This document shows positions 136 through 23,273 of a stretch of 27,795 bases of DNA, in pieces. A model generated the notes under the pieces. It saw nothing but the letters and a program-made list of their open reading frames with translations. It was not told the DNA's origin and did no database searches. The translations under genes were made by a program, and so were the position numbers. The stretch's first letter is position 1. Each line of letters begins with the position of its first letter. The stretch comes from a virus (lineage: Duplodnaviria > Heunggongvirae > Uroviricota > Caudoviricetes). Where the stretch lies: positions 1-27,795 of IMG/VR virus record IMGVR_UViG_2703718828_000002; one strand, written 5' to 3'.

Positions 136-161
136 ATGGCGTGCAATTGCACGCCATTTTT
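136..161 (+). terminator. Rho-independent terminator between convergent genes
   Basis: Perfect 22-nt palindrome ATGGCGTGCAATTGCACGCCAT (136-157) followed by T-run 157-161; lies between the stop of the partial ORF (120) and the stop of the minus-strand MTase (160-162). Confidence 0.5.
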
Positions 162-1191
162 AATTTGAAAGGTGCTTGAGAATACTTTGCCCAATGATCT
201 CGCCTAACCTTACCGGCACTGCATTTCCTATCATTCTTGCTGTTGATGCAATGTCCAAACTAGATTCTTTATCGAAAAATAAATAATCTTTCGGAAAACT
301 TTGCAGTATCGCAGCTTCTCTTAAGGAGATTGCCCTGTTTTGTTCTGGATGACCAAAGCGTCCATTACCAAAACCATAGCATTGTGTGGTTATTGTTGGA
401 CTTGGTTCATTCCATGACATCCTGCCATAAACACTTTTATAAAATTTTCCAGACTCTTTTAAGTGACAAGGTGCTCTCAAGTGTATCGGCCAATCATGCC
501 AATCGCCTCCGGGCTTTGAAGCTTTAATACGCTCCATGTTCAAAGGGCTAAGAGTAGAACATTTATGAAGTGGATCGCGCTTGTCACATTCTCCAGCATT
601 TAATGATGGAAGGCCAAATATTGCATCCTTAACAGTTACGTAATTTTTTTTGTTATGAGTCGGATCAATTATAGAGATAGGACCTAATTTGGATGCTAAT
701 AATACTAAACGTTTACGAGTTTGCGGCATTCCATAATCTGGGCAAAAAACGATCTTATAATAAACATTATATCCATGGCCTTCAAGGTTGTTTATGAAAT
801 CTTTAAATATGTCTTGTGTCATCAAGCCTGGTACATTCTCCATCGTGACGATAGAGGGTTGCGTTTCATCAATTAACCGCGAAAAAGAATATAATAATGC
901 CCATTTGTCATCTTTTTTCTTGTTTTTAGTTCTTCCATATGTTGAAAACGGCTGACAAGGAGCGCATCCAGCTAAAATCGTTACATCTGAATCTTTAAAA
1001 TGACTGAGGATCTGTTCACCCTTCAAAACGGTTATGTCTTGATTGATAAAAACTGCATTATTATTAAATTCAAACGCAAAACGGCAGGTTTCTTCAATAT
1101 CATAACCTGCTACAACATCAATGCCTGATTGCTTTAACCCATGGGTTAGCCCCCCGGCTCCGCAAAATAAATCTACTGCTTTGATTTTCAA
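160..1191 (-). CDS. DNA cytosine-5 methyltransferase (Dcm-like m5C MTase), copy 1
   Basis: 343-aa translation carries m5C-MTase motifs: DLFCGAGG (motif I), GCAPCQPFS (catalytic PCQ, motif IV), ENV (motif VI), QTRKR (motif VIII), GNAVPV (motif X). Start codon is TTG (rc of 1189-1191). AT-rich relative to the integrase next to it. Confidence 0.9.
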   Translation of the reverse strand: MKIKAVDLFCGAGGLTHGLKQSGIDVVAGYDIEETCRFAFEFNNNAVFINQDITVLKGEQILSHFKDSDVTILAGCAPCQPFSTYGRTKNKKKDDKWALLYSFSRLIDETQPSIVTMENVPGLMTQDIFKDFINNLEGHGYNVYYKIVFCPDYGMPQTRKRLVLLASKLGPISIIDPTHNKKNYVTVKDAIFGLPSLNAGECDKRDPLHKCSTLSPLNMERIKASKPGGDWHDWPIHLRAPCHLKESGKFYKSVYGRMSWNEPSPTITTQCYGFGNGRFGHPEQNRAISLREAAILQSFPKDYLFFDKESSLDIASTARMIGNAVPVRLGEIIGQSILKHLSN

Positions 1192-1263: not shown

Positions 1264-2457
1264 TCACATCATTTCTTTGACTTTGCTTCCCCACCATTTC
1301 ATAACTACAGCACGTTGTTCAAGGTATGTGCTACGGTTGTAGGCTCTACGTACCTCATTTTTGTCTGAATGAGCTAAGCAAGCCTCAATAACATCTGCGT
1401 TAAAGCAAGCTTCATTCATCGCGGTACTTGCTATAGAACGTAAACCATGCGCAACGAGCTTTCCATTATACCCAATACGTTTCAGTGCAGCATTCGCCGT
1501 TTGGCTATTCATCGGTTGCTTAGGATCATTCCTACTAGGGAATACGTGTACACGATGGGCACTGATAGGTTTCATTACTTCAAGTACCTCAAGTGCTTGA
1601 GGTGACAAAGGAACAATGTGCTCGCGTTTTGCCTTCATCCGCTCTGCTGGAATTGTCCATAGCTTAGCCTCAAAATCTATCTCTGACCATTGAGTACCGG
1701 AAGCTTCTGAGGGCCGTACGATAGTCAGTAGTTGCCATTCAATCAGGCAGCGAGTCGGGACTGATAGGTTTGACATAACCAATGATCGCATTAACTTTGG
1801 CAGTTCTTCTGGCCGCAATGTCGGCATGTTTTGCTTTTTAGGTTTCTCAAATGCCATACCAACACCTGATGCTGGGTTGCCATCAATCAAGCCGGTGTTA
1901 ACCGCATAAATCATTATCTCGTTGATGCGCTGCACCAGTCGACGTACAGTCTCAAGCGCCCCACGAGCTTTGATTGGCTCAAGAGCTTCAACCAGTGTAC
2001 GGGCTTTGATTTGCTGAACGGGGATCTCACCGATGGCAGGGAATACATCTTTCTCCAGTGAGCGCCAAATGTCTTTTGCGTAATCAGGAGTAACGCTTTT
2101 GCTTTTGAGCTGGAACCAGTTAGCGGCTACTGTTGAAAAAATACTGTCCAGTGCGATTTGCTGCTGTTCCTCTGCAACTTCAGCTTGAATTTGTGGGTCG
2201 ATTCCGTTGGCTAATAAAGCAAGGTAATTCGCTCTTAACCCTCGGGCATCAGCAAGCGAAAGGGCGGGGAAAGCACCTAGCCCCATCATTGTCCGTTGTT
2301 TTGTCGCCGGACGTTGATAACGAAAGCGCCAGAGCTTTTTTCCACTGGTTTTCACTATCAGGAAAAGGCCATTGCCATCATGCAGCGTTAGATCCTTCTC
2401 TAACGCTTTAGCGCGAAGAACTTCGGTATTGGTCAGGGGGCGTGTTGTCCGTGCCAC
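1264..2457 (-). CDS. int: P4/CP4-57-type tyrosine integrase (ssrA-targeting IntA-like)
   Basis: 397-aa translation beginning MARTTRPLTNTEVLRAK...LWRFRYQRP resembles P4-family integrases as recalled; GTG start (rc of 2455-2457) preceded by AAGGAG 8 nt upstream; the ssrA 3-prime core lies about 185 nt upstream on the same strand. Confidence 0.85.
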   Translation of the reverse strand: MARTTRPLTNTEVLRAKALEKDLTLHDGNGLFLIVKTSGKKLWRFRYQRPATKQRTMMGLGAFPALSLADARGLRANYLALLANGIDPQIQAEVAEEQQQIALDSIFSTVAANWFQLKSKSVTPDYAKDIWRSLEKDVFPAIGEIPVQQIKARTLVEALEPIKARGALETVRRLVQRINEIMIYAVNTGLIDGNPASGVGMAFEKPKKQNMPTLRPEELPKLMRSLVMSNLSVPTRCLIEWQLLTIVRPSEASGTQWSEIDFEAKLWTIPAERMKAKREHIVPLSPQALEVLEVMKPISAHRVHVFPSRNDPKQPMNSQTANAALKRIGYNGKLVAHGLRSIASTAMNEACFNADVIEACLAHSDKNEVRRAYNRSTYLEQRAVVMKWWGSKVKEMM

Positions 2458-2480
2458 TATGGCCGCTCCTTCATGAATTG

Positions 2481-2526
2481 GTATACGCTTTTAGGTATAC
2501 ATCCTACCGTATACCTAAACGTATAC
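2481..2526. repeat. Four phased GTATAC-containing repeats upstream of the P4-type integrase
   Basis: GTATAC at 2481-2486, 2495-2500, 2509-2514 and 2521-2526 (spacing 14, 14, 12 nt), each in a GG/CG-TATAC-C context, 24-70 nt upstream of the int start. Confidence 0.4.
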
Positions 2527-2574
2527 CAATAATCACCGGATTTAGCCAGATATTCTCGGACAAGGACAGACACA

Positions 2575-2591
2575 AAAAAGCCCGTAGGGCT
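2575..2591 (-). terminator. Rho-independent terminator downstream of the ssrA 3-prime fragment
   Basis: Minus strand reads GCCCTACGGGC followed by TTTTTT (rc of 2575-2591); about 50 nt downstream of the CCA end of the ssrA fragment. Confidence 0.45.
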
Positions 2592-2641
2592 TGTGCCGTG
2601 CGGGCTTTCTGTACTTCACCGGACGTATCCGGATCATCATT

Positions 2642-2686
2642 TGGTGGAGCTGGCGGGAGTTGAACCCGCGTCCGAAATTCCTACAT
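2642..2686 (-). other. ssrA: Attachment-site core: terminal 45 nt of the tmRNA (ssrA) gene, not an intact gene
   Basis: Plus strand TGGTGGAGCTGGCGGGAGTTGAACCCGCGTCCGAAATTCCTACAT is the reverse complement of the recalled enterobacterial tmRNA 3-prime end (...AUGUAGGAAUUUCGGACGCGGGUUCAACUCCCGCCAGCUCCACCA). The match stops at 2686 and the flanking sequence is unrelated AT-rich DNA. Confidence 0.8.
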
Positions 2687-2818: not shown

Positions 2819-4339
2819 TTATTCAGGCTTTAATTTATTGATAATAGAATCTACCATTTTAATGCCTGCCTCATTGACTATGACTGAATTGACTACTCTA
2901 TCAAAATAGTCTTCTATATGGTGGGAAAATAGGAAAGCAGCACTTGATGGTTTTTTGTTCTTTTCAACTGCAGATTGCAAGACTTCATGAGGCGGAATTT
3001 TAAACCTTTTGCATGATGCAATGAGATATTCAAACTCTTCAAATGATAGACAAAAAATATTCTCTGTAGGGATATGATAGTTATGTTTAAACTTGTCATA
3101 TATCTTATTCATCTCATCTTTAGCATAAGTATTAGCTAGGATACTACCATTGCCTAAGAAAAGGTTTTTATATGTAATGCAAATGATATATGAGTTAGCC
3201 CTGAATGGAGCTATTATTCGCTCATTAGAGTATATTTCTCGATTAACTTCGTGAGATTGTTCGATTGCTTTTAATACCGATTTCTTTATTTTTCCTGCAA
3301 TATCCTCAGGGCGTAATGTTACCATGCCTTTTTGGTGTATCTCAACGCCTTTAGCATCAATGAAAATATTTGCCTCAGTATGTGGAATGAAATAATCAAC
3401 TACTTTATTATCTTTAGGTAGTCGTTCTTTAAGGTATTTTTCGTTATGAAAATCAATTTCGCTTTCTTTTAGTATTAATTCCAGTGCATTTTCAAATACA
3501 TTTCCAAAGCTATCCATGAACTTCTCGGCATCAGTTCTTCTTAAAAGATCATATATGAACGTCTGTATGCTTGTTGAAGTCAGTTGTGTGTGTATCTGAA
3601 AATACTCTGAACCTTTTTTTATTAATGGTTTTTCAAGGAAAGGTGATGATGAGTAGTATTCAAGCAAAGGTTTATCATAGGTTTTTGATTTGCAAAATGT
3701 AGATAGTTCATTGTAATTTATTGATATTGCATCAAGAAATTTCTCAATGGTATTTCTAGGAATGATGTCAAATAATATAGTAAATGTATCTACATTCATT
3801 TTTCTCACGGGATGCTCTTCTGTTATGTGAGTTATTAATATGTAAGATAGCTTAAGAAAGTCTTCTATAGATACATTCGTGATAGTAAAAAAACTTGTCT
3901 TTATTTTATGGTTTTTTTCAAGTTCTGAAAATAGAAAGACTTGTCTGCTAATTGTGTTTAGAGCGTCAATTTTCTGGTAGATTCCTTGTTGGTATAGATT
4001 ATTTCTAATGAAGAAATGCATGCCATTCTTCCTCTCAAGACCGATAGGAATAATGTTCAAGGTTTCATAAGTTTTTTGGAAGAGTTTTATTGCTTGATTT
4101 TTATCGAGGATTTTGAATTTTTTATTCTTGCCAGTTACTGACGCAGACCACTTTAGACATAAATTAACAATCCAAGGCATGTGTCGTAACATGTGGATAT
4201 TATCTTCAAATTTTTGTAAGTTATATTGCATACAGAATTCGATAAATAAATCAGGGGAATAACCTTGGATTTCTGAACGAATAGCATCCATTCTTAACTT
4301 TGCAACCGCATCAGATTGAATATCTAATTTTTGAATCAC
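2819..4339 (-). CDS. Hypothetical 506-aa protein; AT-rich cargo gene between the att core and the prophage integrase
   Basis: Long uninterrupted ORF with markedly lower GC than int; GTG start (rc of 4337-4339) with GGAG 9 nt upstream overlapping the int stop; no family recognised by eye. A weak D...DxK pattern (VVDYFIPHTEANIFIDAKG) is the only motif-like element noted. Confidence 0.65.
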   Translation of the reverse strand: MIQKLDIQSDAVAKLRMDAIRSEIQGYSPDLFIEFCMQYNLQKFEDNIHMLRHMPWIVNLCLKWSASVTGKNKKFKILDKNQAIKLFQKTYETLNIIPIGLERKNGMHFFIRNNLYQQGIYQKIDALNTISRQVFLFSELEKNHKIKTSFFTITNVSIEDFLKLSYILITHITEEHPVRKMNVDTFTILFDIIPRNTIEKFLDAISINYNELSTFCKSKTYDKPLLEYYSSSPFLEKPLIKKGSEYFQIHTQLTSTSIQTFIYDLLRRTDAEKFMDSFGNVFENALELILKESEIDFHNEKYLKERLPKDNKVVDYFIPHTEANIFIDAKGVEIHQKGMVTLRPEDIAGKIKKSVLKAIEQSHEVNREIYSNERIIAPFRANSYIICITYKNLFLGNGSILANTYAKDEMNKIYDKFKHNYHIPTENIFCLSFEEFEYLIASCKRFKIPPHEVLQSAVEKNKKPSSAAFLFSHHIEDYFDRVVNSVIVNEAGIKMVDSIINKLKPE

Positions 4340-4351
4340 AATAGGTCTCCA

Positions 4352-5365
4352 CTACAAATTATAAAGAGGATTTTTAGTCACCGCGTCTTCAAGGTGATCG
4401 GGCGAAAAGTGGGCGTAAATCATGGTCATTTTTATATCGGCATGACCCAAAATATCACGCAGTACCAGTATGTTTCCGCCGTTCATCATAAAGTGACTGG
4501 CGAATGTATGGCGAAGCACGTGGGTGCATTGGCCCTCCGGTAGGTCAATACCGGCCCGCTTTACTGCCCGCTCAAAGGCTTTTCTGCATGGCGTGAATAA
4601 CTTTCCTCTGTTTTTGGGGAGTTCATCATACAGATCCTGAGATATCGGCACAGTACGGTTTTTCTTGCCTTTTGTTTTTGTATAAGTAATTCGGTATTTC
4701 GATATTTGATGGCCCTGCAGATTTTCGGCTTCACTCCACCGTGCGCCAGTAGCCAGGCATATTTTTGCAATCATTAGTAAGCTAGGGCTTTGAGATTCAG
4801 CACATGCCGCCAACAGGCGCTTGATTTCGTCCGTGGAAAGAAAAGCCAGCTCACCTTCGGCAATTTTGAAGGTCGGAAGTCCTGCCAGCGGGTTTGGTGC
4901 TGACCAGTGTCCTAGTTTTTTTAATGTACCGAACACAGATGATAGATTGCGCTGTTCAAGGTTTACCGTGCGGGGCTTAACGGGCGACATCAGCGTGCCA
5001 TCTTCATTTCGCACTTCACCTTTTAGCCGTGCTTCGCGGTATTTCGTAAAGTCACCGGCAGTCAGCTCTGAAGCGATGGGATCGCCCAGACCATTACAGA
5101 TAATTCCAAGTTTCGCCATGAGTCGCTTGGGGTCTGCGAGTGTTTGACCATACAGGGAATACCACAGCTCAATTAATTCTGATAGGTGTCGCCGATCTTC
5201 CTTTTCTCCCAGCCAAGGTTTCTTGTTTACCTCGTCCATGGTGAAATTCTCAAACGCAATGGCTTCGCCTTTCGTCGCAAATTGTTTGCGTACGCGTTTG
5301 CCATCTCGCCCGTTTGGGTAGCATTCACATAACCACTTTCCGTTCGGCTGTTTTCTGATGGTCAT
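4352..5365 (-). CDS. int: P2/186-family tyrosine integrase
   Basis: 337-aa translation with C-terminal tyrosine-recombinase signature region (...HVLRHTFASHFMMNGGNILVLRDILGHADIKMTMIYAHF) consistent with R..HxxR..Y catalytic residues; ATG at rc 5363-5365 one nt after the repressor stop. Confidence 0.9.
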   Translation of the reverse strand: MTIRKQPNGKWLCECYPNGRDGKRVRKQFATKGEAIAFENFTMDEVNKKPWLGEKEDRRHLSELIELWYSLYGQTLADPKRLMAKLGIICNGLGDPIASELTAGDFTKYREARLKGEVRNEDGTLMSPVKPRTVNLEQRNLSSVFGTLKKLGHWSAPNPLAGLPTFKIAEGELAFLSTDEIKRLLAACAESQSPSLLMIAKICLATGARWSEAENLQGHQISKYRITYTKTKGKKNRTVPISQDLYDELPKNRGKLFTPCRKAFERAVKRAGIDLPEGQCTHVLRHTFASHFMMNGGNILVLRDILGHADIKMTMIYAHFSPDHLEDAVTKNPLYNL

Positions 5366-5366
5366 A

Positions 5367-5999
5367 TCAAAGGCTCTTAATGATTTTCAGTGCGCGGCCT
5401 ATTACCTCAATGTCATCCAGTTCGCACTCAAACGATGAATCATCCTGATGCACTACTAATCTGTTTCCCGGGAGTCGTGTCAATTTTACAATGCTTTTTA
5501 TCCCGTCGATGTCCACTAACCACGTACCATTTACTGGTGGTGTTTGGTTGCGATCTATTAAATAAGAATCACCAGAAGTAGTCACCAGCAGCAGGTTGCT
5601 TGAGTCTGAGGGGAGTATGCTGCTATCAATGATTGCTTTTCCAGCATCGATCAGCAAACCTCCGTTGAGAGTTGCCTTGTCAATTTCAGGAGATACAAGC
5701 TCCGAAAGAGGTTTAACTTTGCTAGAGTTCACGGAATTGATATTTTTTTTAGGGTCAATGTTTGAACCTGGATCGCCCTGTCCGGTAGTTAGCCACAGTA
5801 AAGAAACTCCTGTTTCCAAAGCGCACTGAATCACCCATTCTGCAGGAAAACTATCTCTTAAGTATCTGTTTGCCATAGTGCTTTTTGATGCGCCCAAGTG
5901 ATCGCAAAGTTGCTGTCTGGACTTGAAATCATAGGCTGCCATTAGCCTATGGATAGCCTCTCTTCCCCCTGTATTCTCGCCAGCTTTTACTTGTATCAT
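5367..5999 (-). CDS. cI: CI-type immunity repressor (phage 186 CI-like)
   Basis: 210-aa protein on the int strand, divergent from the apl/cII operon; motifs CALETG..LLWL.TGQG and LWLVDIDG...LTRLPG...FECELDDI match the 186 CI layout as recalled. Confidence 0.75.
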   Translation of the reverse strand: MIQVKAGENTGGREAIHRLMAAYDFKSRQQLCDHLGASKSTMANRYLRDSFPAEWVIQCALETGVSLLWLTTGQGDPGSNIDPKKNINSVNSSKVKPLSELVSPEIDKATLNGGLLIDAGKAIIDSSILPSDSSNLLLVTTSGDSYLIDRNQTPPVNGTWLVDIDGIKSIVKLTRLPGNRLVVHQDDSSFECELDDIEVIGRALKIIKSL

Positions 6000-7950: not shown

Positions 7951-8804
7951 GCACCATCCTGAAATGGGCGGGAAATAAAACCGCCATTATGTCCGAACTG
8001 AAAAAACACCTTCCTGCTGGCCCGCGACTGGTTGAACCTTTCGCGGGTTCCTGTGCTGTGATGATGGAGACGGATTACCCCAGCTATCTGGTTGCGGATA
8101 TTAATCCTGATTTAATCAACCTCTATAAAAAGGTTGCCGCTGATTGTGAATCGTTTATATCTCGCGCCAGAGTTTTATTTGAGATCGCAAACAGGGAGGT
8201 GGCTTATTACAACATAAGGCAGGAGTTTAATTACTCCACTGAAATTACTGATTTCATGAAAGCGGTATATTTCCTGTATCTCAATCGTCACGGTTACCGT
8301 GGTTTATGTCGCTATAACAAGAGCGGGCATTTCAACATTCCCTACGGTAATTATAAAAATCCGTATTTCCCTGAAAAAGAAATTCGCGCATTTGCAGAAA
8401 AAGCCCAGCGGGCAACGTTTATCTGCGCCAGCTTTGATGAAACGCTGGCGATGTTGAAGGCGGGGGATGTGGTGTATTGCGATCCGCCGTATGACGGCAC
8501 GTTTTCCGGTTATCACACTGACGGCTTCACTGAAGATGACCAGTATCACCTGGCATCCGTTCTTGAACATCGGTCATCAGAAGGACATCCGGTCATTGTT
8601 TCTAACAGTGACACATCCCTGATCCGTTCGCTGTATCGCAATTTTACTCACCACTACATCAAGGCAAAACGCAACATCGGTGTGGCAGCTGGCGAGGGTA
8701 AATCAGCAACAGAAATCATTGCTGTTTCCGGGCCGCGCTGCTGGGTGGGATTTGATTATTCGCGTGGCATGGACAGTTCTGCCGTGTACGGAGTACGTGC
8801 ATGA
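7947..8804 (+). CDS. dam: DNA adenine methyltransferase (Dam-like, N6-adenine)
   Basis: N-terminal LKWAGNK AdoMet-binding motif and catalytic DPPY (VYCDPPYDG). ATG 7947 with GGAGG 6 nt upstream, overlapping the previous stop (ATGA); the track start at 7887 has no RBS. Confidence 0.9.
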
Positions 8805-11215
8805 GTCATGCCGATATGAACAACTGCTGCGGCTTTAACGAGGCTACCGCAGCATTCTCATGGAACAGCCCGAAAAAGGCCATTAACCCTTATCTGGACC
8901 CGGCGGAAGTTGCGCCGGTTTCTGCGCTTTCAAACCTGATCACTCTGTACGCTGCCGATAACGAGCAGGAACAACTGCGCCGTGAGGCACTGAGTGATCA
9001 GGTCTGGGAGCGTTATTTCTTTAATGAATCCCGTGATCCTGTCCAGCGCGAAATGGAGCAGGATAAGCTAATTAGCCGGGCAAAGCTGGCGCATGAGCAG
9101 CAGCGTTTTAATCCAGACATGGTCATTCTGGCGGATGTCAACGCCCAGCCTTCCCATATCAGCAAGCCGCTGATGCAACGTATTAAATACTTCAGCAACC
9201 TGGGCAGGCCAAAGGCTTATTCCCGCTATTTGCGTGAGACGATTAAGCCATGCTTGGAACGACTGGAGCATGTACGCGACAGCCAGCTATCTGCATCTTT
9301 TCGTTTTATGGCAAGCCATGAAGGGCTGGACGGTCTGCTGATCCTGCCTGAAATGAGTCAGGATCAGGTGAAACGCCTGTCCACCCTTGTCGCTGCGCAT
9401 ATGAGCATGTGTCTTGATGCCGCTTGTGGTGATTTGTACGCCTCCGATGATGTTAAGCCGGAAGAAATCCGCAAGACATGGGAAAAGGTGGCAGCAGAAA
9501 CCCTGCGACTGGATGTCATACCGCCTGCGTTTGAGCAACTCCGCCGGAAAAGAAACCGCCGCAAACCTGTGCCCTATGAACTCATTCCGGGTTCGCTGGC
9601 GCGTATGCTGTGCGCCGACTGGTGGTATCGGAAATTATGGAAGATGCGTTGCGAATGGCGGGAAGAGCAGTTGCGTGCTGTCTGTCTGGTCAGCAAAAAA
9701 GCATCTCCCTATGTCAGCTATGAAGCCGTGATGCATAAACGTGAGCAGCGCCGTAAGTCGCTGGAGTTTTTCCGTTCTCATGAACTGGTGAACGAAGACG
9801 GCGACACGCTGGACATGGAGGATGTGGTAAACGCCAGCAGCAGCAACCCTGCGCATCGCCGCAATGAGATGATGGCCTGTGTTAAAGGCCTGGAGCTTAT
9901 CGCGGAAATGCGCGGTGACTGCGCCGTTTTCTACACCATCACCTGTCCGTCACGTTTCCATTCCACGCTAAATAACGGCAGGCCCAACCCGACCTGGACA
10001 AATGCGACGGTAAGACAAAGCAGTGATTATCTGGTTGGCATGTTTGCTGCATTTCGTAAGGCGATGCACAAAGCCGGATTGCGCTGGTATGGCGTGCGGG
10101 TGGCTGAGCCGCATCATGACGGTACAGTTCACTGGCACCTGTTGTGTTTTATGCGCAAAAAAGATCGCCGCGCCATTACTGCTTTGTTGCGTAAGTTTGC
10201 CATTCGTGAAGACCGCGAGGAGCTGGGGAATAACACGGGACCACGCTTTAAGTCTGAGTTGATTAACCCGCGCAAAGGAACGCCGACAAGCTACATCGCG
10301 AAATATATCAGTAAGAACATTGACGGGCGTGGTCTGGCTGGCGAGATCAGCAAGGAAACGGGTAAATCCCTGCGTGATAACGCTGAATACGTGAATGCCT
10401 GGGCGTCTCTGCATCGTGTTCAGCAATTCCGCTTCTTTGGCATTCCGGGGCGTCAGGCTTACCGTGAACTGCGATTGCTGGCTGGTCAGGCGGCAAGGCA
10501 ACAGGGTGACAAAAAAGCAGGTGCGCCGGTACTGGATAACCCGCGCCTTGATGCCATCCTGGCTGCTGCTGATGCTGGTTGTTTTGCCACCTACATCATG
10601 AAGCAGGGCGGCGTACTGGTTCCCCGCAAATATCACCTCATCAGAACCGCTTATGAAATCAACGAAGAGCCAACCGCCTATGGCGATCACGGTATTCGTA
10701 TTTATGGCATCTGGTCACCCATTGCAGAGGGCAAGATCTGCACTCATGCAGTGAAGTGGAAAATGGTTCGTAAGGCCGTTGACGTTCAGGAGGCGGCAGC
10801 CGACCAGGGCGCTTGCGCCCCTTGGACTCGTGGCAATAACTGTCCCCTTGCTGAAAATTTGTACCAACAAGGGAAAGACAAATCAGCTGATGGGGATACC
10901 AGAACGGATATTACCCGTATGGATGACAAGGAGTTGCACGATTACCTGCACAGTATGAACAAAAAAGAACGCCGGGAACTGGCTGCAAGATTACGCCTGG
11001 TGAAACCGAAACGGCGTAGAGACTACAAACAGCGAATTACAGACCATCAACGACAGCAGCTCGTCTATGAACTGAAGTCCAGAGGATTTGATGGCAGCGA
11101 GAAAGAGGTCGATTTACTCCTTCGCGGCGGCAGCATTCCGTCAGGAGCAGGCCTGCGTGTCTTCTATCGGAACCAGCGTTTGCAGGAAGATGATAAGTGG
11201 CGGAACCTGTATTAA
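8801..11215 (+). CDS. A: Replication initiation protein A (rolling-circle nickase, P2 gpA family)
   Basis: 804 aa with HUH-type motif [10 protein letters not shown] and paired tyrosines YIAKYISK; ATGA overlap with the dam stop; size and position match P2/186 gene A. Confidence 0.9.
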
Positions 11216-12034: not shown

Positions 12035-13075
12035 TTGATTAAAGTTGTTGATCTTTTTTGCGGAGCAGGTGGCTTAACTCATGGTTTGCAACGAGCAGGG
12101 TTGAATGTGGTTGCAGGCTATGATATTGATGCTACATGTCGGTATGCTTATGAAAAAAATAACAATGCTTTATTTGTGCAAAAAAGCGTCACTGAACTTG
12201 ATGAAGGGGAAATAAGTAAGCATTTTAAGGATGCATCAATTAAAGTTTTAGCTGGATGCGCTCCATGCCAGCCATTTTCTAGTTATACAAATACTGATAA
12301 ATCAGTAAAAAAAATAAAAGACCATCGATGGTCTTTATTGTATAGCTTTGCTAAGCAAATTCAATTATGTGCTCCAGATATAGTCACAATGGAGAATGTT
12401 CCAAGAGTTATTAACCACAAAGTTTTTAAAGATTTTGTGAAGACTTTAAAGTCTGAAGGGTATTTCGTTTGGTATGATACTGTATTTTGTCCTGATTATG
12501 GAATGGCCCAAAGCCGATCTAGATTAGTGTTATTAGCGTCCAAGTTTGGCGAGATAAAACTAATCCCGCCAACACATGATAAAAATAACTATAACACTGT
12601 ACGTAGCGTTATTGGTGGATTGCCTCCTATTGATGCTGGATCGAGTGATGAGAAAGACAGACTTCATTATGCTGCATCTTTATCACCATTAAATATGGAG
12701 CGAATAAAACATTCTAAGCCAGGTGGAACATGGAAAGATTGGCCTGAGTACTTACGGGCGTCATGCCACACCAAAGAATCAGGATCTTCTTACACTGCAG
12801 TTTATGGAAGAATGAGCTGGGATAAACTTGGCTCTACAATTACAACACAATGTATAGGTTTTGGTAATGGTCGATTTGGTCATCCAGAACAAAATAGAGC
12901 TATTAGCCTAAGAGAGGCAGCTTTGCTTCAATCTTTTCCTCTAACTTATGAATTTTGGCCAGCTGAAGTAAAAGTTGAACTCAGGAATGTTGCACGACTG
13001 ATTGGTAATGCTGTGCCGGTGAGGCTCGGTGAAGTTGTTGGGCAAAGTATTATTGAACACCTTAAAAGAAAATAA
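12035..13075 (+). CDS. DNA cytosine-5 methyltransferase (Dcm-like m5C MTase), copy 2, paralogous to copy 1
   Basis: 346 aa with DLFCGAGG, GCAPCQPFS, ENV, QSRSR and GNAVPV motifs; collinear by eye with the 160..1191 protein along its whole length; TTG start with strong SD; AT-rich. Confidence 0.9.
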   Translation: MIKVVDLFCGAGGLTHGLQRAGLNVVAGYDIDATCRYAYEKNNNALFVQKSVTELDEGEISKHFKDASIKVLAGCAPCQPFSSYTNTDKSVKKIKDHRWSLLYSFAKQIQLCAPDIVTMENVPRVINHKVFKDFVKTLKSEGYFVWYDTVFCPDYGMAQSRSRLVLLASKFGEIKLIPPTHDKNNYNTVRSVIGGLPPIDAGSSDEKDRLHYAASLSPLNMERIKHSKPGGTWKDWPEYLRASCHTKESGSSYTAVYGRMSWDKLGSTITTQCIGFGNGRFGHPEQNRAISLREAALLQSFPLTYEFWPAEVKVELRNVARLIGNAVPVRLGEVVGQSIIEHLKRK

Positions 13076-13099
13076 AAAGGGCGAATCGCCCTTTTTTTT
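13074..13099. terminator. Bidirectional terminator shared by the convergent MTase and GHKL genes
   Basis: A-run, GGGCG-AAT-CGCCC hairpin, T8 run; overlaps both stop codons (13073-13075 and 13098-13100). Confidence 0.5.
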
Positions 13100-15056
13100 A
13101 GATACCATCAACAATTTTCATTATTCGTGCAGCATCATCTTTTTTGCTCTGATACTCAGAGTATGCTTGTTTGGATTGTATTATAAGATCGCTATATGTT
13201 AATACCTTTGCATTTATAGATTGTAGCTGTGAGCGAATATAATTATCTCCACTTCCGTCATAACCTTTGCCGACAAGAAAAACTACATCTATCGGTGGTA
13301 TTTTTCCGGCAGGGCAACTATTTGGGTTGTTTCTAAACCACTGCTCTGTGGCAACAACATATTTCCTTCCTTGACCTACTAATGCCAAAATATCAGGATA
13401 TACATTTGGTCTTTTCATTTCAATGATGACGTGTTTACCTGAAACGGTTTTGAAGGCTATATCAATTCTTGCACCACTTTCAGCGTCAGGGTTAACCTCT
13501 TTCAATTCCTTAGTCAGGGTTTGTTCCATAACTGTAGAACCAGTAACCCTCTCCCATGATGGGTCTAACAGCCATAAGTGGTCATAAAGATATTTTTGTA
13601 CAGCCTTCTCTAACTCATTGTCATCGGTGATTTTTTGAAATTTCTCAATAACTTTCAATCGCTGTGATGTAATCTCATAAAAAAGGCTTGCCTCAATATC
13701 ATTTACAGAAGCAAAAACCTCCCTAAAATGTTCTGAGTTTAAATCGCTAATTTTATCTAAAGCCTCAAGGTTATCTTTTATTCTTAATCTTTCAAAAGCA
13801 AGAACTGTATTTTTTAATACGGTTTTTTTTGCAATTTTCTGGTTTTCTTCATCTCCAGAAAATCTAAATGTGTTAATTTTGCCTAGTAATTTTTCGGCGC
13901 TGTTTCTTTCATGTTTTGACATGGAATCAAGCCAATCACTTACAGCAGGTGAAGTTTTTTTAACCTCGCTAAGACCTTTTGCTCTTCGCCATTCATCCCA
14001 TTCTTTATCTATTTTTTGTAATGTCCGTTCTAAGAAACCCTTAATCACAGGATAGCGTGGATCATTCTGCTGTAATTTCTGTCGGGATGAGGTTGCCATG
14101 TCAGGTTTTTCATTTTCATCTAAAAAATCTGCGACAAGTTCCCCTACTAAATAATTTGTAAAAACCTTTGCGCTTCCGAATTCAAGCAATATATCTTCTT
14201 CAAATACCCGCCCATTTGATATTACGGTTATCGTGTTGTTAGATATTTCAGGGTCTTTTTTAAGTTGAGATGGTTTCTCAACACTTCCTACATAACCAGT
14301 AATGAAATAATCTACGCCTTCAAAAGATAATTTGTTATCTAGAAGGCTTTTTTTAGAAAGATTTTTGCAAGATTTTACTCTTGCGGGATCTGAACTACCA
14401 AACTCCCATAAAAATTCAAGATCTGAAAGGAAGTCTCTATCTTCAGTAGTTATCTCAGTGTCATTGATTTTAACTATAAAATCATGACCAGGACCAATTA
14501 TGCTAAACCGTCTGGCAAGTCTTTTTCTTAGATAGGTCTGAGTTCTATCAATGGATTTTTTTAAATCCATAAGAACTATTGTCGTCCCTATACTAAAGTC
14601 TTTCGGAACATTAATAATATTTGCAACATATTGTTTACTGCTTTTTATACAGCGTTGCAATTCATCAACGTCAACTTCAAATCCCTGAGGCGTTTGGCCA
14701 ATTTTGTGAGAAAATACTTGGATTTTGTTAGCTAATGAAAACATTGCTAATTTACCAATGCCTTTTCTACCCATGACTTGTCGTTGTAATCCATCACTTT
14801 TATACCTTCCACTTTCTCTTCTGGCATATCCAACTTTTAGGAATTTATTAATGATGTCATCTTTTGACATTCCATGTCCATCATCTTTAATTATTACCTT
14901 TTCATTTTCAACATCTAGAGTGATGTCTACATTTTTAGCATCCGCATCCCAAGCATTTGAGATTATTTCAGTTAGAACAGCTGGTGTGTTAGAGTAAAGA
15001 CTCATACCTAAATGATTCAATACATTCAGGTCTATTTTAATTTCGAAATCGGACAT
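13098..15056 (-). CDS. GHKL-superfamily ATPase (MORC/MutL/Hsp90-like Bergerat fold) with C-terminal PD-(D/E)xK-like motif; candidate effector partner of MTase copy 2
   Basis: 652 aa. N-terminus carries N-box EIISNAWDADA, G1 box DDGHGM and G2 box GRKGIGKLAMFS; C-terminus carries RIDIAF...12 residues...IIEMKRP (D...ExK). ATG at rc 15054-15056 with AAGGA RBS; AT-rich. Confidence 0.8.
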   Translation of the reverse strand: MSDFEIKIDLNVLNHLGMSLYSNTPAVLTEIISNAWDADAKNVDITLDVENEKVIIKDDGHGMSKDDIINKFLKVGYARRESGRYKSDGLQRQVMGRKGIGKLAMFSLANKIQVFSHKIGQTPQGFEVDVDELQRCIKSSKQYVANIINVPKDFSIGTTIVLMDLKKSIDRTQTYLRKRLARRFSIIGPGHDFIVKINDTEITTEDRDFLSDLEFLWEFGSSDPARVKSCKNLSKKSLLDNKLSFEGVDYFITGYVGSVEKPSQLKKDPEISNNTITVISNGRVFEEDILLEFGSAKVFTNYLVGELVADFLDENEKPDMATSSRQKLQQNDPRYPVIKGFLERTLQKIDKEWDEWRRAKGLSEVKKTSPAVSDWLDSMSKHERNSAEKLLGKINTFRFSGDEENQKIAKKTVLKNTVLAFERLRIKDNLEALDKISDLNSEHFREVFASVNDIEASLFYEITSQRLKVIEKFQKITDDNELEKAVQKYLYDHLWLLDPSWERVTGSTVMEQTLTKELKEVNPDAESGARIDIAFKTVSGKHVIIEMKRPNVYPDILALVGQGRKYVVATEQWFRNNPNSCPAGKIPPIDVVFLVGKGYDGSGDNYIRSQLQSINAKVLTYSDLIIQSKQAYSEYQSKKDDAARIMKIVDGI

Positions 15057-15476: not shown

Positions 15477-16526
15477 TCAGCCTCGTTTGCTCTTAAGTCC
15501 TAAGTCATAGGCTTCAAAACGGATCACCTCTTCACCCAGCCAGTTGTTAAGCTCCTGCAGTCGCTTTTGCAGTGGCATCAGTTCATTGCGGACGAAAACA
15601 CGGCTCGCCTTTTCCACATCACCGAAGCCACCAGTGTTGTTGGGAATGATACCCATCATTTGCGGCGGCACACGATGCGCCGCCATCATGTCGTCCCGGC
15701 TTACGTTCTTGATGTTCAGAAACTCATCCTTCGCCGCGACTTCTGATAACGGGATAATCTGAAGTCCGTCCTTTTTGCCGTTAGGAGAGTACATAAACAG
15801 ATTGCGGAAGTTACCTGGTCCTTTGGCGCTTTTCATTGCATTGCGGAGGTTGTTCACATCCTCCTGGTTTTGTGCGGCGTCGGTCATGTACATGATGAAG
15901 CCTGCATGACTGCCGTTGATGTAATACTTCCGGCGGAACAGCGTGGCGGACTCGTTGAGCAGGGCTGACGGAATGGCAGAAAGATAACCGGGCAGGCCGT
16001 AGATCTCCTGGTTGATGTCCGGTTCCATCAGATGAAAAATGCTGCCTTTCGCGAACTGATACGGCTGGGTTGTCATACCGTATTGCACAAACCAGTAGGT
16101 ATCCAGGTCTAACCCGCGTCGGGTGTATTTTGCCAGAGCAGGCTCTAGGGCGATAACTTCACCGAAGCGGTTCGTGCGTTTCTCCAGGTAGGCGTTACCA
16201 AATACCAGATAGTCCTGCACAAAACGTGAAAAAGCCTGCTGGCTGAGCAGCGGGTGAGGGATGTAGGTGCTGGTCAGAATGTTGCATTTCACCGCAATCG
16301 GTGAGCTGTGATGCACGGCGGCGCGGAAGGTTCGCGCCAGTCCGTCGAAACTCACAGGCGGCTCATACCAGCGATCCATCTGTACGCATTCCACATAGTC
16401 CAGCAGTTCACGGCGGTCCAGAACAGGAACGGGATCGCCGAAGCTGAATGCTTCGGCTGTAGTTTGACTTTTAAGCTGGATCTGTTTCGTCGCCGCAGCG
16501 CGGTTCTTCTTACTCTTTCCCATCAA
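15477..16526 (-). CDS. Q: Portal protein (P2 gpQ)
   Basis: 349 aa; extended collinearity with P2 Q as recalled (...AFSFGDPVPVLDRRELLDYVEC...WYEPPVSF...AVHHSSPI...). ATGA overlap with the terminase gene. Confidence 0.9.
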   Translation of the reverse strand: MMGKSKKNRAAATKQIQLKSQTTAEAFSFGDPVPVLDRRELLDYVECVQMDRWYEPPVSFDGLARTFRAAVHHSSPIAVKCNILTSTYIPHPLLSQQAFSRFVQDYLVFGNAYLEKRTNRFGEVIALEPALAKYTRRGLDLDTYWFVQYGMTTQPYQFAKGSIFHLMEPDINQEIYGLPGYLSAIPSALLNESATLFRRKYYINGSHAGFIMYMTDAAQNQEDVNNLRNAMKSAKGPGNFRNLFMYSPNGKKDGLQIIPLSEVAAKDEFLNIKNVSRDDMMAAHRVPPQMMGIIPNNTGGFGDVEKASRVFVRNELMPLQKRLQELNNWLGEEVIRFEAYDLGLKSKRG

Positions 16527-18289
16527 AAAATCTCCACAATATTGCTGGTATTGGCGGATTCGCCCTGCAGCGGTTCGTTAAACAGTGCGTGCATCGTTGC
16601 CCAGGCCAGATCCGCATGGCTGGCTTCTTCGCTGCGGCTGGCTTCATAGGTCGGGCGGTTGCCACTGGCGGTGGTGGAGCGACGGATTGCCATAAAGGAC
16701 TGCGCTATGTCGGTGTGTCCGGCGTCAAACTCCAGACGGCGGTGGCTGATAATGTCGTAGGCCTTGAGTACCAGGGCGTTTTTAACGTTGGGGTTGTAGA
16801 CAAACTCCCGGACGGCAGGAAAGAATGCTTTCACGTTCTCGTAAACCCCGTGGCCGACGCCAGTTGAGTCGATGCCGATGTATGTCACGTTGTACTGTTC
16901 GGTCAGTTTTTTGATGGCGTCAGCCTGGGCGCGGAAGTCCATCCCGCGCCACTGGTGACGCTCAAGAATGCGAAACTTACCGCCTGGCACGGCTGGCGGT
17001 GCCACCACCACGCATCCGGCGCTGTCGCCGTTCTGCGTACCTTTTGCCGGGTCATAACCGATCCACACTTCGCGCCAGCCAAACGGGCGCAGGGCCAGTG
17101 CATGAAAGTCGGTCCAGACTTCCCAGCTGTCCACCATGCACGCCTGCAATTCGCTGAGCGGGAACACAGATGCGAGATCGTCAACGAACTCGCACATCAG
17201 CAGGTTCTGGTATTCGTCCGGGCTGTACTCCATGCGCAACTGGTCGAGGTCGAACAGGTTACAGCCGCCGCGTACCGCATCTTCCACGGTGACTATCTGG
17301 CGGTATTGCCCGTCTGCGCACAGCAGGCCGGGGGCCAGATTGCTGTGGGACAGGTCGATGTCCACCTTATCGGCTTTGTTGCGCCCACGGTTGAACAGCG
17401 CACCGGACCAGAACGGATAAGCACTGTGTGTCAGGCTGGATGGCGTGGAAAAATAGGTCTGTCGCCATTTCTTGTGAATAGCCATACCGGAAGCCACTTT
17501 GCGCAGCTCCTGGAATTTCGGTATCCAGAAATATTCATCCAGATACAGGTTGCCGTGGTAACTCTGGGCCGTGCGGGCATTGGTGCCGAGGAAATACAGT
17601 GTGGCCCCGTTGGGAAGCACCATCGGATCGCCTTTCAGCTCCACCTCCACTTCTTTGGCGAAGTCGATGATGTACTGCTTAAAGACGTGGGCCTGTGCTT
17701 TACTGGCGGAAAGGAAAATCTGGTTACGTCCGGTAAGCAGGGCGTCAATCAGGGCTTCACGGGCAAAGTAAAAGGTCGCGCCGATCTGGCGTGACTTCAG
17801 CAGGTTACGGATGCGATTGGTTTTTCCGGCTTCCCACCAGTGGCGCTGGTAGTTGAACATGGAGGAATGGAAGATTTCTTCCAGCTTCTCAATCTGTTCA
17901 TCGGTGAAGACATTCTTTTCCGGCTGACGGCGCGGGCCTTTGTTGCGGTTGGCGACGTTAGGGTTTAAGTCGGCTTCGTTGCCGCCATTGTTAAACTTGC
18001 CGATCCGCGCGTGGCGCTCAGACTGGCGCGCCAGCAGGTCAATCTCTTTGAAATCTTTCCCTTCTTTGTGCTCCTTCATGATGAGCTGGCAGTAGCGTGC
18101 GGCGGTGGTGAGCTGCATCTGATCCAGCGGCCCATAGTCACCCCACTTGTCGCGTTTTTTCCAGCTGTGAACGGTTGCAACTTTCTCGCCCAGCATTTCA
18201 GCAATGCGGGCTACGCGGTATCCCTGAAAGTACAGCAGCATGGCCTGCCGACGGGGATCGAGATCTGCGGGTGTCAGTGTGGTGTTCAT
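16523..18289 (-). CDS. P: Terminase large (ATPase) subunit (P2 gpP)
   Basis: 588 aa; N-terminus ...RRQAMLLYFQGYRVARIAEMLG... and C-terminus ...YEASRSEEASHADLAWATMHAL... match P2 P as recalled. Confidence 0.9.
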   Translation of the reverse strand: MNTTLTPADLDPRRQAMLLYFQGYRVARIAEMLGEKVATVHSWKKRDKWGDYGPLDQMQLTTAARYCQLIMKEHKEGKDFKEIDLLARQSERHARIGKFNNGGNEADLNPNVANRNKGPRRQPEKNVFTDEQIEKLEEIFHSSMFNYQRHWWEAGKTNRIRNLLKSRQIGATFYFAREALIDALLTGRNQIFLSASKAQAHVFKQYIIDFAKEVEVELKGDPMVLPNGATLYFLGTNARTAQSYHGNLYLDEYFWIPKFQELRKVASGMAIHKKWRQTYFSTPSSLTHSAYPFWSGALFNRGRNKADKVDIDLSHSNLAPGLLCADGQYRQIVTVEDAVRGGCNLFDLDQLRMEYSPDEYQNLLMCEFVDDLASVFPLSELQACMVDSWEVWTDFHALALRPFGWREVWIGYDPAKGTQNGDSAGCVVVAPPAVPGGKFRILERHQWRGMDFRAQADAIKKLTEQYNVTYIGIDSTGVGHGVYENVKAFFPAVREFVYNPNVKNALVLKAYDIISHRRLEFDAGHTDIAQSFMAIRRSTTASGNRPTYEASRSEEASHADLAWATMHALFNEPLQGESANTSNIVEIF

Positions 18290-19281: not shown

Positions 19282-20340
19282 ATGAAGAAGAATACCCGCT
19301 TTGCTTTTAACGCTTACCTGCAGCAGCTGGCGCGTCTGAACGGTGTGGCAGTTGAAGAACTGTCCAGCAAGTTCACTGTAGAGCCGTCTGTACAGCAGAC
19401 GCTGGAAGACCAGATCCAGCAGTCCGCCGCTTTCCTGACGCTGATTAACGTCACGCCAGTGACTGAGCAGTCTGGTCAGTTGCTGGGGCTGGGTGTTGGC
19501 AGCACCATTGCCGGAACCACTGACACCACCGCGAAAGAGCGTGAGCCTGTCGATCCGACGCTGATGGTTGATGTGGAATATAAATGCGAGCAGACCAACT
19601 TTGACACGGTGCTGACCTACGCGAAGCTGGACCTGTGGGCGAAGTTTCAGGATTTCCAGGTGCGCATCCGTGACGCCATCGTGAAACGTCAGGCACTGGA
19701 CCGCATCATGATCGGCTTTAACGGCGTGAAGCGTGCGAAAACCTCCAACCGTAGTGAAAACCCGCTGCTGCAGGATGTAAACAAAGGCTGGCTGCAGAAA
19801 ATCCGTGAGGATGCACCGGATCACGTCATGGGCAGCACCACCACGGGCGGTGAAACCACTCCGGGCGCGGTGAAAGTCGGGAAAGGTGGCGAATATGCCA
19901 ACCTGGACGCCGTAGTGATGGATGCCGTCAATGAGCTTATCGATGTGGTCTACCAGGACGATGACGATCTGGTGGTGATTTGCGGTCGTGAACTGCTGTC
20001 TGACAAGTATTTCCCGCTGGTCAACAAAGAGCAGGAAAACAGTGAAAAACTGGCTGCCGATATGATCATCAGTCAGAAACGCATGGGTGGCCTGCAGGCC
20101 GTGCGTGCGCCGTTCTTCCCGCCGAATGCGCTGCTGATCACCCGTCTGGATAACCTGTCCATCTACTGGCAGGAAGACACCCGCCGCCGTTCAGTTATCG
20201 ACAACCCGAAACGTGACCGGATTGAAAATTTTGAATCCGTTAACGAAGCCTATGTGGTTGAGGACTACCGCTGCGCCGCACTGGTGGAAAACATCCAGAT
20301 TGGCGATTTCAGCGCCGCTGCAGTAGAAGCCGGAGCGTAA
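19282..20340 (+). CDS. N: Major capsid protein (P2 gpN)
   Basis: 352 aa; ...TRFAFNAYLQQLARLNGV...KFTVEPSVQQTL... and ...GFNGVKRA.TSNRS.NPLLQDV... track the P2 N sequence as recalled. Confidence 0.9.
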   Translation: MKKNTRFAFNAYLQQLARLNGVAVEELSSKFTVEPSVQQTLEDQIQQSAAFLTLINVTPVTEQSGQLLGLGVGSTIAGTTDTTAKEREPVDPTLMVDVEYKCEQTNFDTVLTYAKLDLWAKFQDFQVRIRDAIVKRQALDRIMIGFNGVKRAKTSNRSENPLLQDVNKGWLQKIREDAPDHVMGSTTTGGETTPGAVKVGKGGEYANLDAVVMDAVNELIDVVYQDDDDLVVICGRELLSDKYFPLVNKEQENSEKLAADMIISQKRMGGLQAVRAPFFPPNALLITRLDNLSIYWQEDTRRRSVIDNPKRDRIENFESVNEAYVVEDYRCAALVENIQIGDFSAAAVEAGA

Positions 20341-22848: not shown

Positions 22849-23273
22849 ACCGGTTGCTGCTGGTTGTGCTGACGTTATTACTGGCGGCGCTGGGCTGGCA
22901 GACGTGGCGGCTGGCTGATGCCAGCCAGACCATCAGCACGCAGGCAGACGAGCTGCAGAGCAAAAGCCAGGCACTGGCAAAGAGCAATAGCCAGCTTATC
23001 AGCCTGTCCATTCTGACTGAAACCAATAACCGGGAGCAGGCGCGGCTCTATGCCGAAGCAGAACAGACCATTGCACTGCTGAGACAACGACAACACCGGA
23101 TCGAGGAACTGAAACGTGAGAACGAGGATTTACGCCGCTGGGCTGATACTCCTTTGCCTGCTGACATTATCCGGCTGCGGAAACGTCCGGCACTCACCGG
23201 AGGTATGGCTTACCGTCAGTGGTTGTCCGCGAGTGACGCCGTGTCGGCTGGATCAGGCAGCGCCGCGCATTAA
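22845..23273 (+). CDS. lysB: Rz-like inner-membrane spanin (P2 LysB)
   Basis: 142 aa; N-terminal TM segment, coiled-coil middle, and ...ENEDLRRWADTPLPADIIRLRKRPALTGG resembling P2 LysB as recalled. Confidence 0.75.
   Translation: MNRLLLVVLTLLLAALGWQTWRLADASQTISTQADELQSKSQALAKSNSQLISLSILTETNNREQARLYAEAEQTIALLRQRQHRIEELKRENEDLRRWADTPLPADIIRLRKRPALTGGMAYRQWLSASDAVSAGSGSAAH

Follow-up and report, generated by a model that had tools for sequence, protein, structure and literature searches.

The stretch of DNA analysed here (the window, 27,795 nt in full) carries on its minus strand the gene of a P4-type tyrosine integrase, int, with a type II-like C-5 cytosine methyltransferase gene directly downstream of it (Table 1). 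The integrase (Int) consists of an N-terminal arm-DNA-binding domain (PF13356, residues 8-92, E = 9e-22), a central domain and a catalytic domain. The first of these has homologues of solved structure in the arm-binding domains of the HAI7 and HPI integrases (PDB 3JU0, 6e-17, and 3JTZ), so that the satellite Int possesses the separate N-terminal arm-DNA-binding domain expected of a heterobivalent tyrosine integrase. Upstream of the GTG start lie a ribosome-binding site, an array of short repeats that is the subject of this work, a conserved leader block, a terminator-like hairpin and a copy of the 3' end of ssrA, the tmRNA gene. The hairpin follows the ssrA end in all related elements, and its columns are near-invariant among 77 distinct relatives.

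Element and neighbouring prophage

A locus in E. coli WP4-S18-ESBL-07 (L001) is 100% identical to that of the window. At L001 a complete ssrA precedes int, the first gene behind it, and next come cargo genes for a cytosine methyltransferase, a HEPN-like nuclease and a DUF262 protein; downstream of this cargo lie the P4 hallmarks ogr/delta, psu, a sid-like capsid assembly gene, a vis-like HTH gene, icd and the alpha primase-helicase. From the position of int after a complete ssrA, and from these hallmark genes, we identify the element as a P4-like satellite phage with ssrA as its insertion site. The variable region that follows int holds the methyltransferase gene in the window and, additionally, the HEPN-like nuclease and DUF262 genes in L001 (13496-16356). 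Cargo at the same position differs in related satellites, one of which (L002) carries ABC-three-component genes.

The remainder of the window, from 2687 to 27795, belongs to a P2/186-like prophage that is inserted in ssrA and separates the satellite from the real tmRNA gene; the complete ssrA lies outside the window, beyond that prophage. This explains why the window contains only an ssrA fragment and no tmRNA call: neither ARAGORN nor Rfam called a tmRNA or tRNA gene beside int in the window, and a full tmRNA or tRNA gene adjoining int was rejected, as just the 45-nt 3' fragment is found there. The fragment is identical to the ssrA 3' end in L001.

A helper-type phage and its satellite type are in this way found in tandem at one attB, with the 45-nt ssrA fragment alone between them. 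Between the att end of the prophage and the prophage integrase we noticed a 506-aa open reading frame (2819-4339, minus strand) whose sole match was PHROG 14259 (unknown function), with no match in Pfam or PADLOC; at the att-int position of a P2-like prophage it is possibly a moron or defence cargo gene. Two further reading frames lie between the replication and packaging modules of the prophage, one DNA methyltransferase-like (PHROG 116, 12035-13075, plus strand) and the other of 652 aa (PHROG 6203, unknown function, 13098-15056, minus strand).

Table 1. Features of the satellite int region and of the adjoining prophage, in window coordinates
Feature	Position	Strand	Remarks
Type II-like C-5 cytosine methyltransferase	160-1191	-	directly downstream of int
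P4-type tyrosine integrase, 397 aa, GTG start	1264-2457	-	Pfam PF13356, PF22022, PF00589
Ribosome-binding site GAAGGAG	2466-2472	-	8 nt before int GTG, read directly
Arm repeat copy 4, CGTATACCAAT	2477-2487	-	inverted copy of ATTGGTATACG; in expected 5' untranslated region
Arm repeat copy 3, GTATACCTAAA	2490-2500	-	inverted copy of TTTAGGTATAC; overlaps expected transcription start
Putative -10 of int promoter, TAGGAT	2501-2506	-	consensus and conservation
Arm repeat copy 2, TTAGGTATACGG	2507-2518	-	direct; in 17-nt promoter spacer; P4 homologue 3953-3942 by position
Arm repeat copy 1, ATTGGTATACGT	2519-2530	-	direct; putative -35 TTGGTA (2529-2524) inside; P4 homologue 3965-3954 by position
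Leader block, TCCGAGAATATCTGGCTAAATCCGGTGATT	2531-2560	-	TCYG every 10 nt (2560, 2550, 2540)
G+C-rich hairpin and T-run, AAAGCCCGCACGGCACAAGCCCTACGGGCTTTTTT	2578-2608	-	inverted repeat I5, terminator-like match
ssrA (tmRNA) 3'-end copy, 45 nt	2642-2686	-	CCA end at 2642; att core (…ACTCCCGCCAGCTCCACCA) inside
P2-type integrase	4352-5365		P2/186-like prophage
CI repressor	5367-5999		P2/186-like prophage
Replication protein A	8801-11215		P2/186-like prophage
Portal	15477-16526		P2/186-like prophage
Terminase	16523-18289		P2/186-like prophage
Capsid	19282-20340		P2/186-like prophage

The repeat array and its unit

The first-pass annotation had noted four copies of the hexamer GTATAC, spaced 12-14 nt apart and lying 24-70 nt upstream of the int GTG start, and the exact coordinates confirm this description: the copies occupy 2481-2486, 2495-2500, 2509-2514 and 2521-2526, with start-to-start distances of 14, 14 and 12 nt, which places them 24-69 nt upstream of the start codon. 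Beyond the array, GTATAC is found just three times in the window. When we made 2000 dinucleotide-preserving shuffles of the window and counted GTATAC per 50-nt span, two copies were reached in 17 of the 2000 shuffles and more than two in none of them, which rules out chance clustering of the hexamer.

Closer alignment of the copies showed that the true repeat unit is longer than GTATAC, namely an asymmetric sequence of about 12 nt made of (A)TTGG or TTAGG followed by TATACG, with GGTATACR inside it. Read in the direction of int, copies 1 and 2 stand in tandem with a 12-nt period, and copies 3 and 4 follow in inverted orientation, an arrangement that accounts for the nested dyad reported by the repeat finder (I3, I6). 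The first-pass argument that the phasing suggests binding on one DNA face takes no account of the two inverted copies. The palindromy of GTATAC itself is incidental, since many relatives have the non-palindromic GGTACACG at the same positions.

Conservation and concerted change of the repeats

In a scan of one genome per species we obtained 79 loci from across the Enterobacterales, their Int identities ranging from 71 to 96%; where an ssrA 3' end was found, it lay 180-257 nt (mostly 183-196) upstream of int. The region is widespread within one species as well, the int-arm region being present in 394 of 5426 complete E. coli genomes. In an alignment of 77 sequences, copies 1, 2 and 4 keep near-invariant cores, and the variation lies in the spacers and in copy 3. 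Copy 3 is the least conserved of the four (GTATGCC, ATATACC, GTGGTCC or GTGGGCC in relatives), and with such poor conservation it may be non-functional in many of them. Comparison with the int-proximal att arms of related islands had been proposed as a check in the first-pass annotation, and across the 79 loci the repeats proved to be either conserved or changing in concert.

The concerted change is of a simple kind. About 30 loci carry GGTACACG in place of GGTATACG (hereafter class B and class A), and the switch involves copies 1, 2 and 4 together: copy 4, near-invariant otherwise, becomes CGTGTACC, and it reads CGTGTACCAAT wherever copies 1 and 2 read GGTACACG. A third class, GGCCCA, is represented by L067 and by CP4-57 of E. 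coli K-12. Arrays of mixed class are rare: there are two, L012, which has a truncated int open reading frame, and L033.

The far att arm is outside the window, so that we examined it in related loci. The far end of L001 carries ATTGGTATACACTTAGGTATAC, a tandem pair of the same motif at 23167-23190, about 58 nt before the element-borne copy of the core; the near-arm array begins about 110 nt after the ssrA end. The motif is unrelated to the core and is present on both core sides of the reconstructed attP in L001 and 15 further loci. Among the 16 loci whose far arm fell inside the fetched flank, the far-arm class equalled the near-arm class in 15 (nine A/A and six B/B). The exception, L055 (17471-17700), combines a near arm of class B with a far arm of class A; a truncated third leader/element comes next, and the locus is probably a short deletion hybrid. 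The occurrence of the same substitution at five separate sites suggests that one factor reads all of the copies.

The element-borne core copy TTCAGACTCCGCCAGCCCACCAA, seen in L001 (23244-23266) and in the far arms of 15 other loci, is kept among elements and has two mismatches to the ssrA 3' end ACTCCCGCCAGCTCCACCA. A core copy that differs at two positions and is conserved in that form among the elements suggests that strand exchange takes place at or after the final CCACCA.

Satellites also stand in tandem at ssrA. In L007 (20331-20640) a class-B element comes after one of class A; in L071 (Yersinia pestis, 20061-20340) two class-A satellites are in tandem, the second without one tandem repeat copy. 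L007 would fit a rule that satellites in tandem never share an arm class, and L071, where both elements are of class A, led us to reject it.

Repeat class follows the integrase N-terminal domain

Two proteins come into question as the factor that reads the repeats, and the first-pass annotation had named both: the integrase, with the repeats as its arm-type binding sites, and an AlpA-like regulator of excision, for which the Vis/AlpA-like protein of these elements was examined. Alignment of 43 class-A with 28 class-B integrases revealed seven columns that separate the classes completely (T4/MILV, T11/N, V13/I, position 19, L23/F, M57/N and A76/D), and all seven fall within residues 4-76. Between the classes, Int identity is 0.66 over residues 1-95 and 0.80-0.81 over residues 96-397, the latter being the within-class level. 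The same comparison for Vis over 46 loci gave no column at all that separates the GGTATAC from the GGTACAC class; the 55-aa Vis cores are identical in five cross-class pairs, and L002 has a Vis with 98.9% identity to that of P4 even though the arm repeats of the two elements are entirely different (GGTATAC vs GGGGGCA). Since columns of the Int N-terminal domain separate the classes and Vis columns do not, the sequences indicate that repeat class tracks the N-terminal domain of Int, not Vis.

Part of this co-variation could come from linkage within one recombination block rather than from co-adaptation, because the region encoding the Int N-terminus adjoins the repeats and, in the circular form, the far arm too. 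Linkage does not, at the same time, explain why all copies change in concert.

That the repeats are sites of a Vis/AlpA-like excisionase-regulator, controlling int expression or the directionality of excision, would be in keeping with several precedents: AlpA-family proteins regulate P4-type integrases, the alpA of E. coli K-12 is annotated as a transcriptional activator and is located near intA at the same ssrA site, P4 Vis regulates int negatively according to PMC2951348, and excisionase sites are typically phased direct repeats in the int-proximal arm. Nonetheless, the motif recurs on the far arm in a layout like that of the P4 Int arm repeats, and the element offers Vis a better-fitting region elsewhere, the leader block at 2531-2560. 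This block is kept in all repeat classes and can be aligned with the attP-int leader of phage P4; since it is common to P4 and to every repeat class, and Vis is likewise conserved across classes, it is a better Vis candidate than the repeats. We regard it as a candidate region for a Vis/AlpA-like excisionase and/or IHF, and note that a search for the strict IHF consensus WATCARNNNNTTR within 2440-2700 found none. Vis/AlpA as the repeat-binding protein was rejected for its lack of co-variation with repeat class, and we consider this reading improbable.

The arm-type reading, on the other hand, draws together the positional homology with P4 (see below), the far-arm tandem pair, the concerted change of the copies and their co-variation with the arm-binding domain of Int. 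We therefore assign a probability of roughly 80% to the interpretation that the repeats serve Int as int-proximal (P'-type) arm sites in the attachment region of a P4-like satellite at ssrA.

A putative int promoter within the array

The array also contains a conserved promoter-like pair. The pattern TTGGTA-17 nt-TAnnnT is present in 73 of 81 loci, always with a spacer of 17 nt, and in all but one of the 73 the -10 element ends 40-43 nt before the start codon; most of the loci without the pattern are decayed or carry a disrupted int gene. The -10 candidates of the relatives read TAAGAT, TATACT, TATAAT, TAAAAT or TAGAAT, and that of the window TAGGAT. The TTGGTA/TAGGAT pair of the window is weak: it scores 8/12, below the threshold of a simple consensus promoter scan, which did not call it. 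The earlier description of the array as a promoter region is in this respect plausible, resting on a conserved -35/-10-like pair, with the qualification that the version in the window is a sub-threshold one. On the strength of conservation and position we think that the pair is probably Pint, the int promoter, and that it would be subject to autorepression by Int.

Such an arrangement has precedents. For P4, repression of int by both Int and Vis is reported, with Int binding to DNA close to where int begins (PMC2951348); in KplE1 the arm-type sites of IntS overlap the PintS promoter (PMC2951348); and the integrase of PAI I536 represses its own promoter (PMC7286903).

Taken together, the observations can be accommodated in the following model. 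The N-terminal domain of Int would bind each 12-mer or so, reading a constant TTGG/TAGG part and the specificity hexamer TATACG, and the catalytic domain would bind the core inside the ssrA 3' end, about 110 nt away; the near-arm array and the far-arm tandem pair would then build the intasome for integration and excision. A sigma-70-like promoter would be embedded in the array, with its -35 in copy 1, copy 2 in the spacer and the -10 between copies 2 and 3, which would place the expected transcription start in copy 3 and leave copies 3 and 4 at and after the start. Because the array encloses the promoter, bound Int should repress its own gene: with copies 1 and 2 occupied by Int, the -35 and the spacer would be blocked, leading to autorepression of int as in P4 and KplE1.

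Structure and methylation as alternative explanations

The nested inverted repeat might instead act as a structure, either a DNA cruciform or a hairpin in the int-leader RNA, or serve an unrelated dimeric repressor as its operator. Folded in single-stranded form, the 61-nt segment reaches -17.7 kcal/mol (z = -7.8), and its outer stem, formed by a direct copy with copy 4, still pairs through the T/C to A/G class switch. Among the relatives, however, support extends to only eight pairs, and the one column that looks 'compensatory' goes back to a single split between the classes, not to recurrent changes. Copy 3, which would pair in the inner stem, is not conserved, the tandem pair on the far arm lacks an inverted counterpart, and copies 1 and 2 would be absent from the RNA if transcription starts after the conserved -10; moreover, the P4 homologues are annotated as att arm repeats. 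With one stem kept, and with its lone co-varying column a single class split, a conserved hairpin or cruciform was rejected, and we judge this explanation to be very improbable.

Weaker still, to the point of being hardly credible, is the proposal that GTATAC is the target of the adjacent C-5 methyltransferase and couples int expression to methylation: the enzyme is encoded directly downstream of int and GTATAC is palindromic like the targets of such enzymes, yet the repeats are kept in relatives that lack this methylase (such as L002, with its ABC-three-component genes), about 30 loci carry the non-palindromic GGTACAC of class B, and GTATAC is not depleted in the window, so that a cluster of methylase targets was rejected.

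Implications

The analysis provides a concrete and testable attachment and regulatory map, covering the core, the candidate excisionase block, the arm sites and the putative int promoter, for the widespread ssrA-targeting P4-like satellites that carry anti-phage defence cargo. No new mechanism is revealed. What is specific to the present case is the recognition sequence TTGG + TATACG for an ssrA-targeting branch of P4-type integrases, and the comparative evidence for discrete switches of arm specificity that go along with the N-terminal domain of Int. A literature search for the motif strings returned only papers that, judged by their titles and abstracts, were unrelated.

We raise, as a tentative suggestion that may well prove wrong, that ssrA-targeting satellites and islands are split into discrete orthogonal Int-arm classes set by Int positions 4, 11, 13, 19, 23, 57 and 76, the sites consisting of a constant TTGG/TAGG followed by a TATACG, TACACG or CCCA-type hexamer (GGGCAT in P4). 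If this were true, a one-base T-to-C switch at all five sites would re-programme which integrase assembles where, and satellites that share one site in tandem, such as the class-A and class-B elements of L007, could excise independently of each other. For studies of how P4-type integrases recognise their arm sites, or for engineering that recognition, the natural specificity-swap series GGTATACG, GGTACACG, GGCCCA and GGGGGCA could be put to use along with the few N-domain residues listed above.

Comparison with known systems

The general design (arm repeats flanking the core, an int promoter in the arm, autorepression by Int) is already known and is annotated in the P4 record. Knowledge of it goes back to the sequencing of the P4 att site, and the P4 attP arm repeats and Pint are reportedly treated in work by Pierson and Kahn from 1987 and by Piazzolla et al. 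from 2006.

The heterobivalent logic of integrases, in which arm sites and core sites are bound by one protein, is established and is summarised in PMC2951348. It is common to the satellite Int and to lambda Int (P1, P2, P'1-P'3), but the arrangement of the arm sites and the accessory factors differ. The arm-binding domains of the HPI and HAI7 integrases (3JTZ, 3JU0) are homologous to the N-domain of the satellite Int, although identity is modest and the DNA sites are different.

A closer parallel in regulation is IntS/TorI of KplE1 (CPS-53) in E. coli, where the int promoter is in attL, is overlapped by arm-type sites and is under negative autoregulation by Int (PMC2951348). KplE1 is a defective prophage at argW, its arm motif and its excisionase (TorI) differ from those of the satellite (Panis et al. 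2010, PMC2951348), and its binding sites and transcription starts were mapped experimentally (PMC2951348), whereas those proposed for the satellite are predicted from sequence. CP4-57 of E. coli K-12 shares the attB (ssrA) and has a homologous leader, in which the tandem units TAGGCCCATTGA and TAGGCCCAACGA with a 12-nt period and an inverted TGGGCCTA just before the intA ATG are found (L083 3678-3732); its repeat core is GGCCCA instead of GGTATAC, and it is a cryptic prophage remnant, not a P4-like satellite.

The closest system is P4 itself, which is of the same element type and has an integrase of the same family. The two nevertheless differ in several respects. P4 integrates at a leucine tRNA gene, as stated in PMC7286903, and not at ssrA; its Int has 440 aa compared with 397 aa here; and the recognition sequence TTGGGGGCAT is not shared beyond TTGG, the hexamer being TATACG here and GGGCAT in P4. 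P4 has one annotated inverted copy, over the int ATG, compared with two here, the last of which ends 19 nt before the GTG. Negative autoregulation of int by DNA-bound Int is described for P4 in PMC2951348.

The organisation, at the same time, is very similar. The P4 record (NC_001609) annotates as 'attP arm sequence repeats' the tandem 12-mers ATTGGGGGCATA and ATTGGGGGCATC at 112 nt from a 20-nt core, and two more tandem 12-mers 53 nt beyond the core; the corresponding distances for the satellite are about 110 nt on the near side and about 58 nt on the far side. The core-to-int leader of P4 aligns with that of the window, the repeats share columns in this alignment, and both begin with ATTGG. 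The att layout of the window and L001 thus agrees with that of P4 attP almost to the nucleotide.
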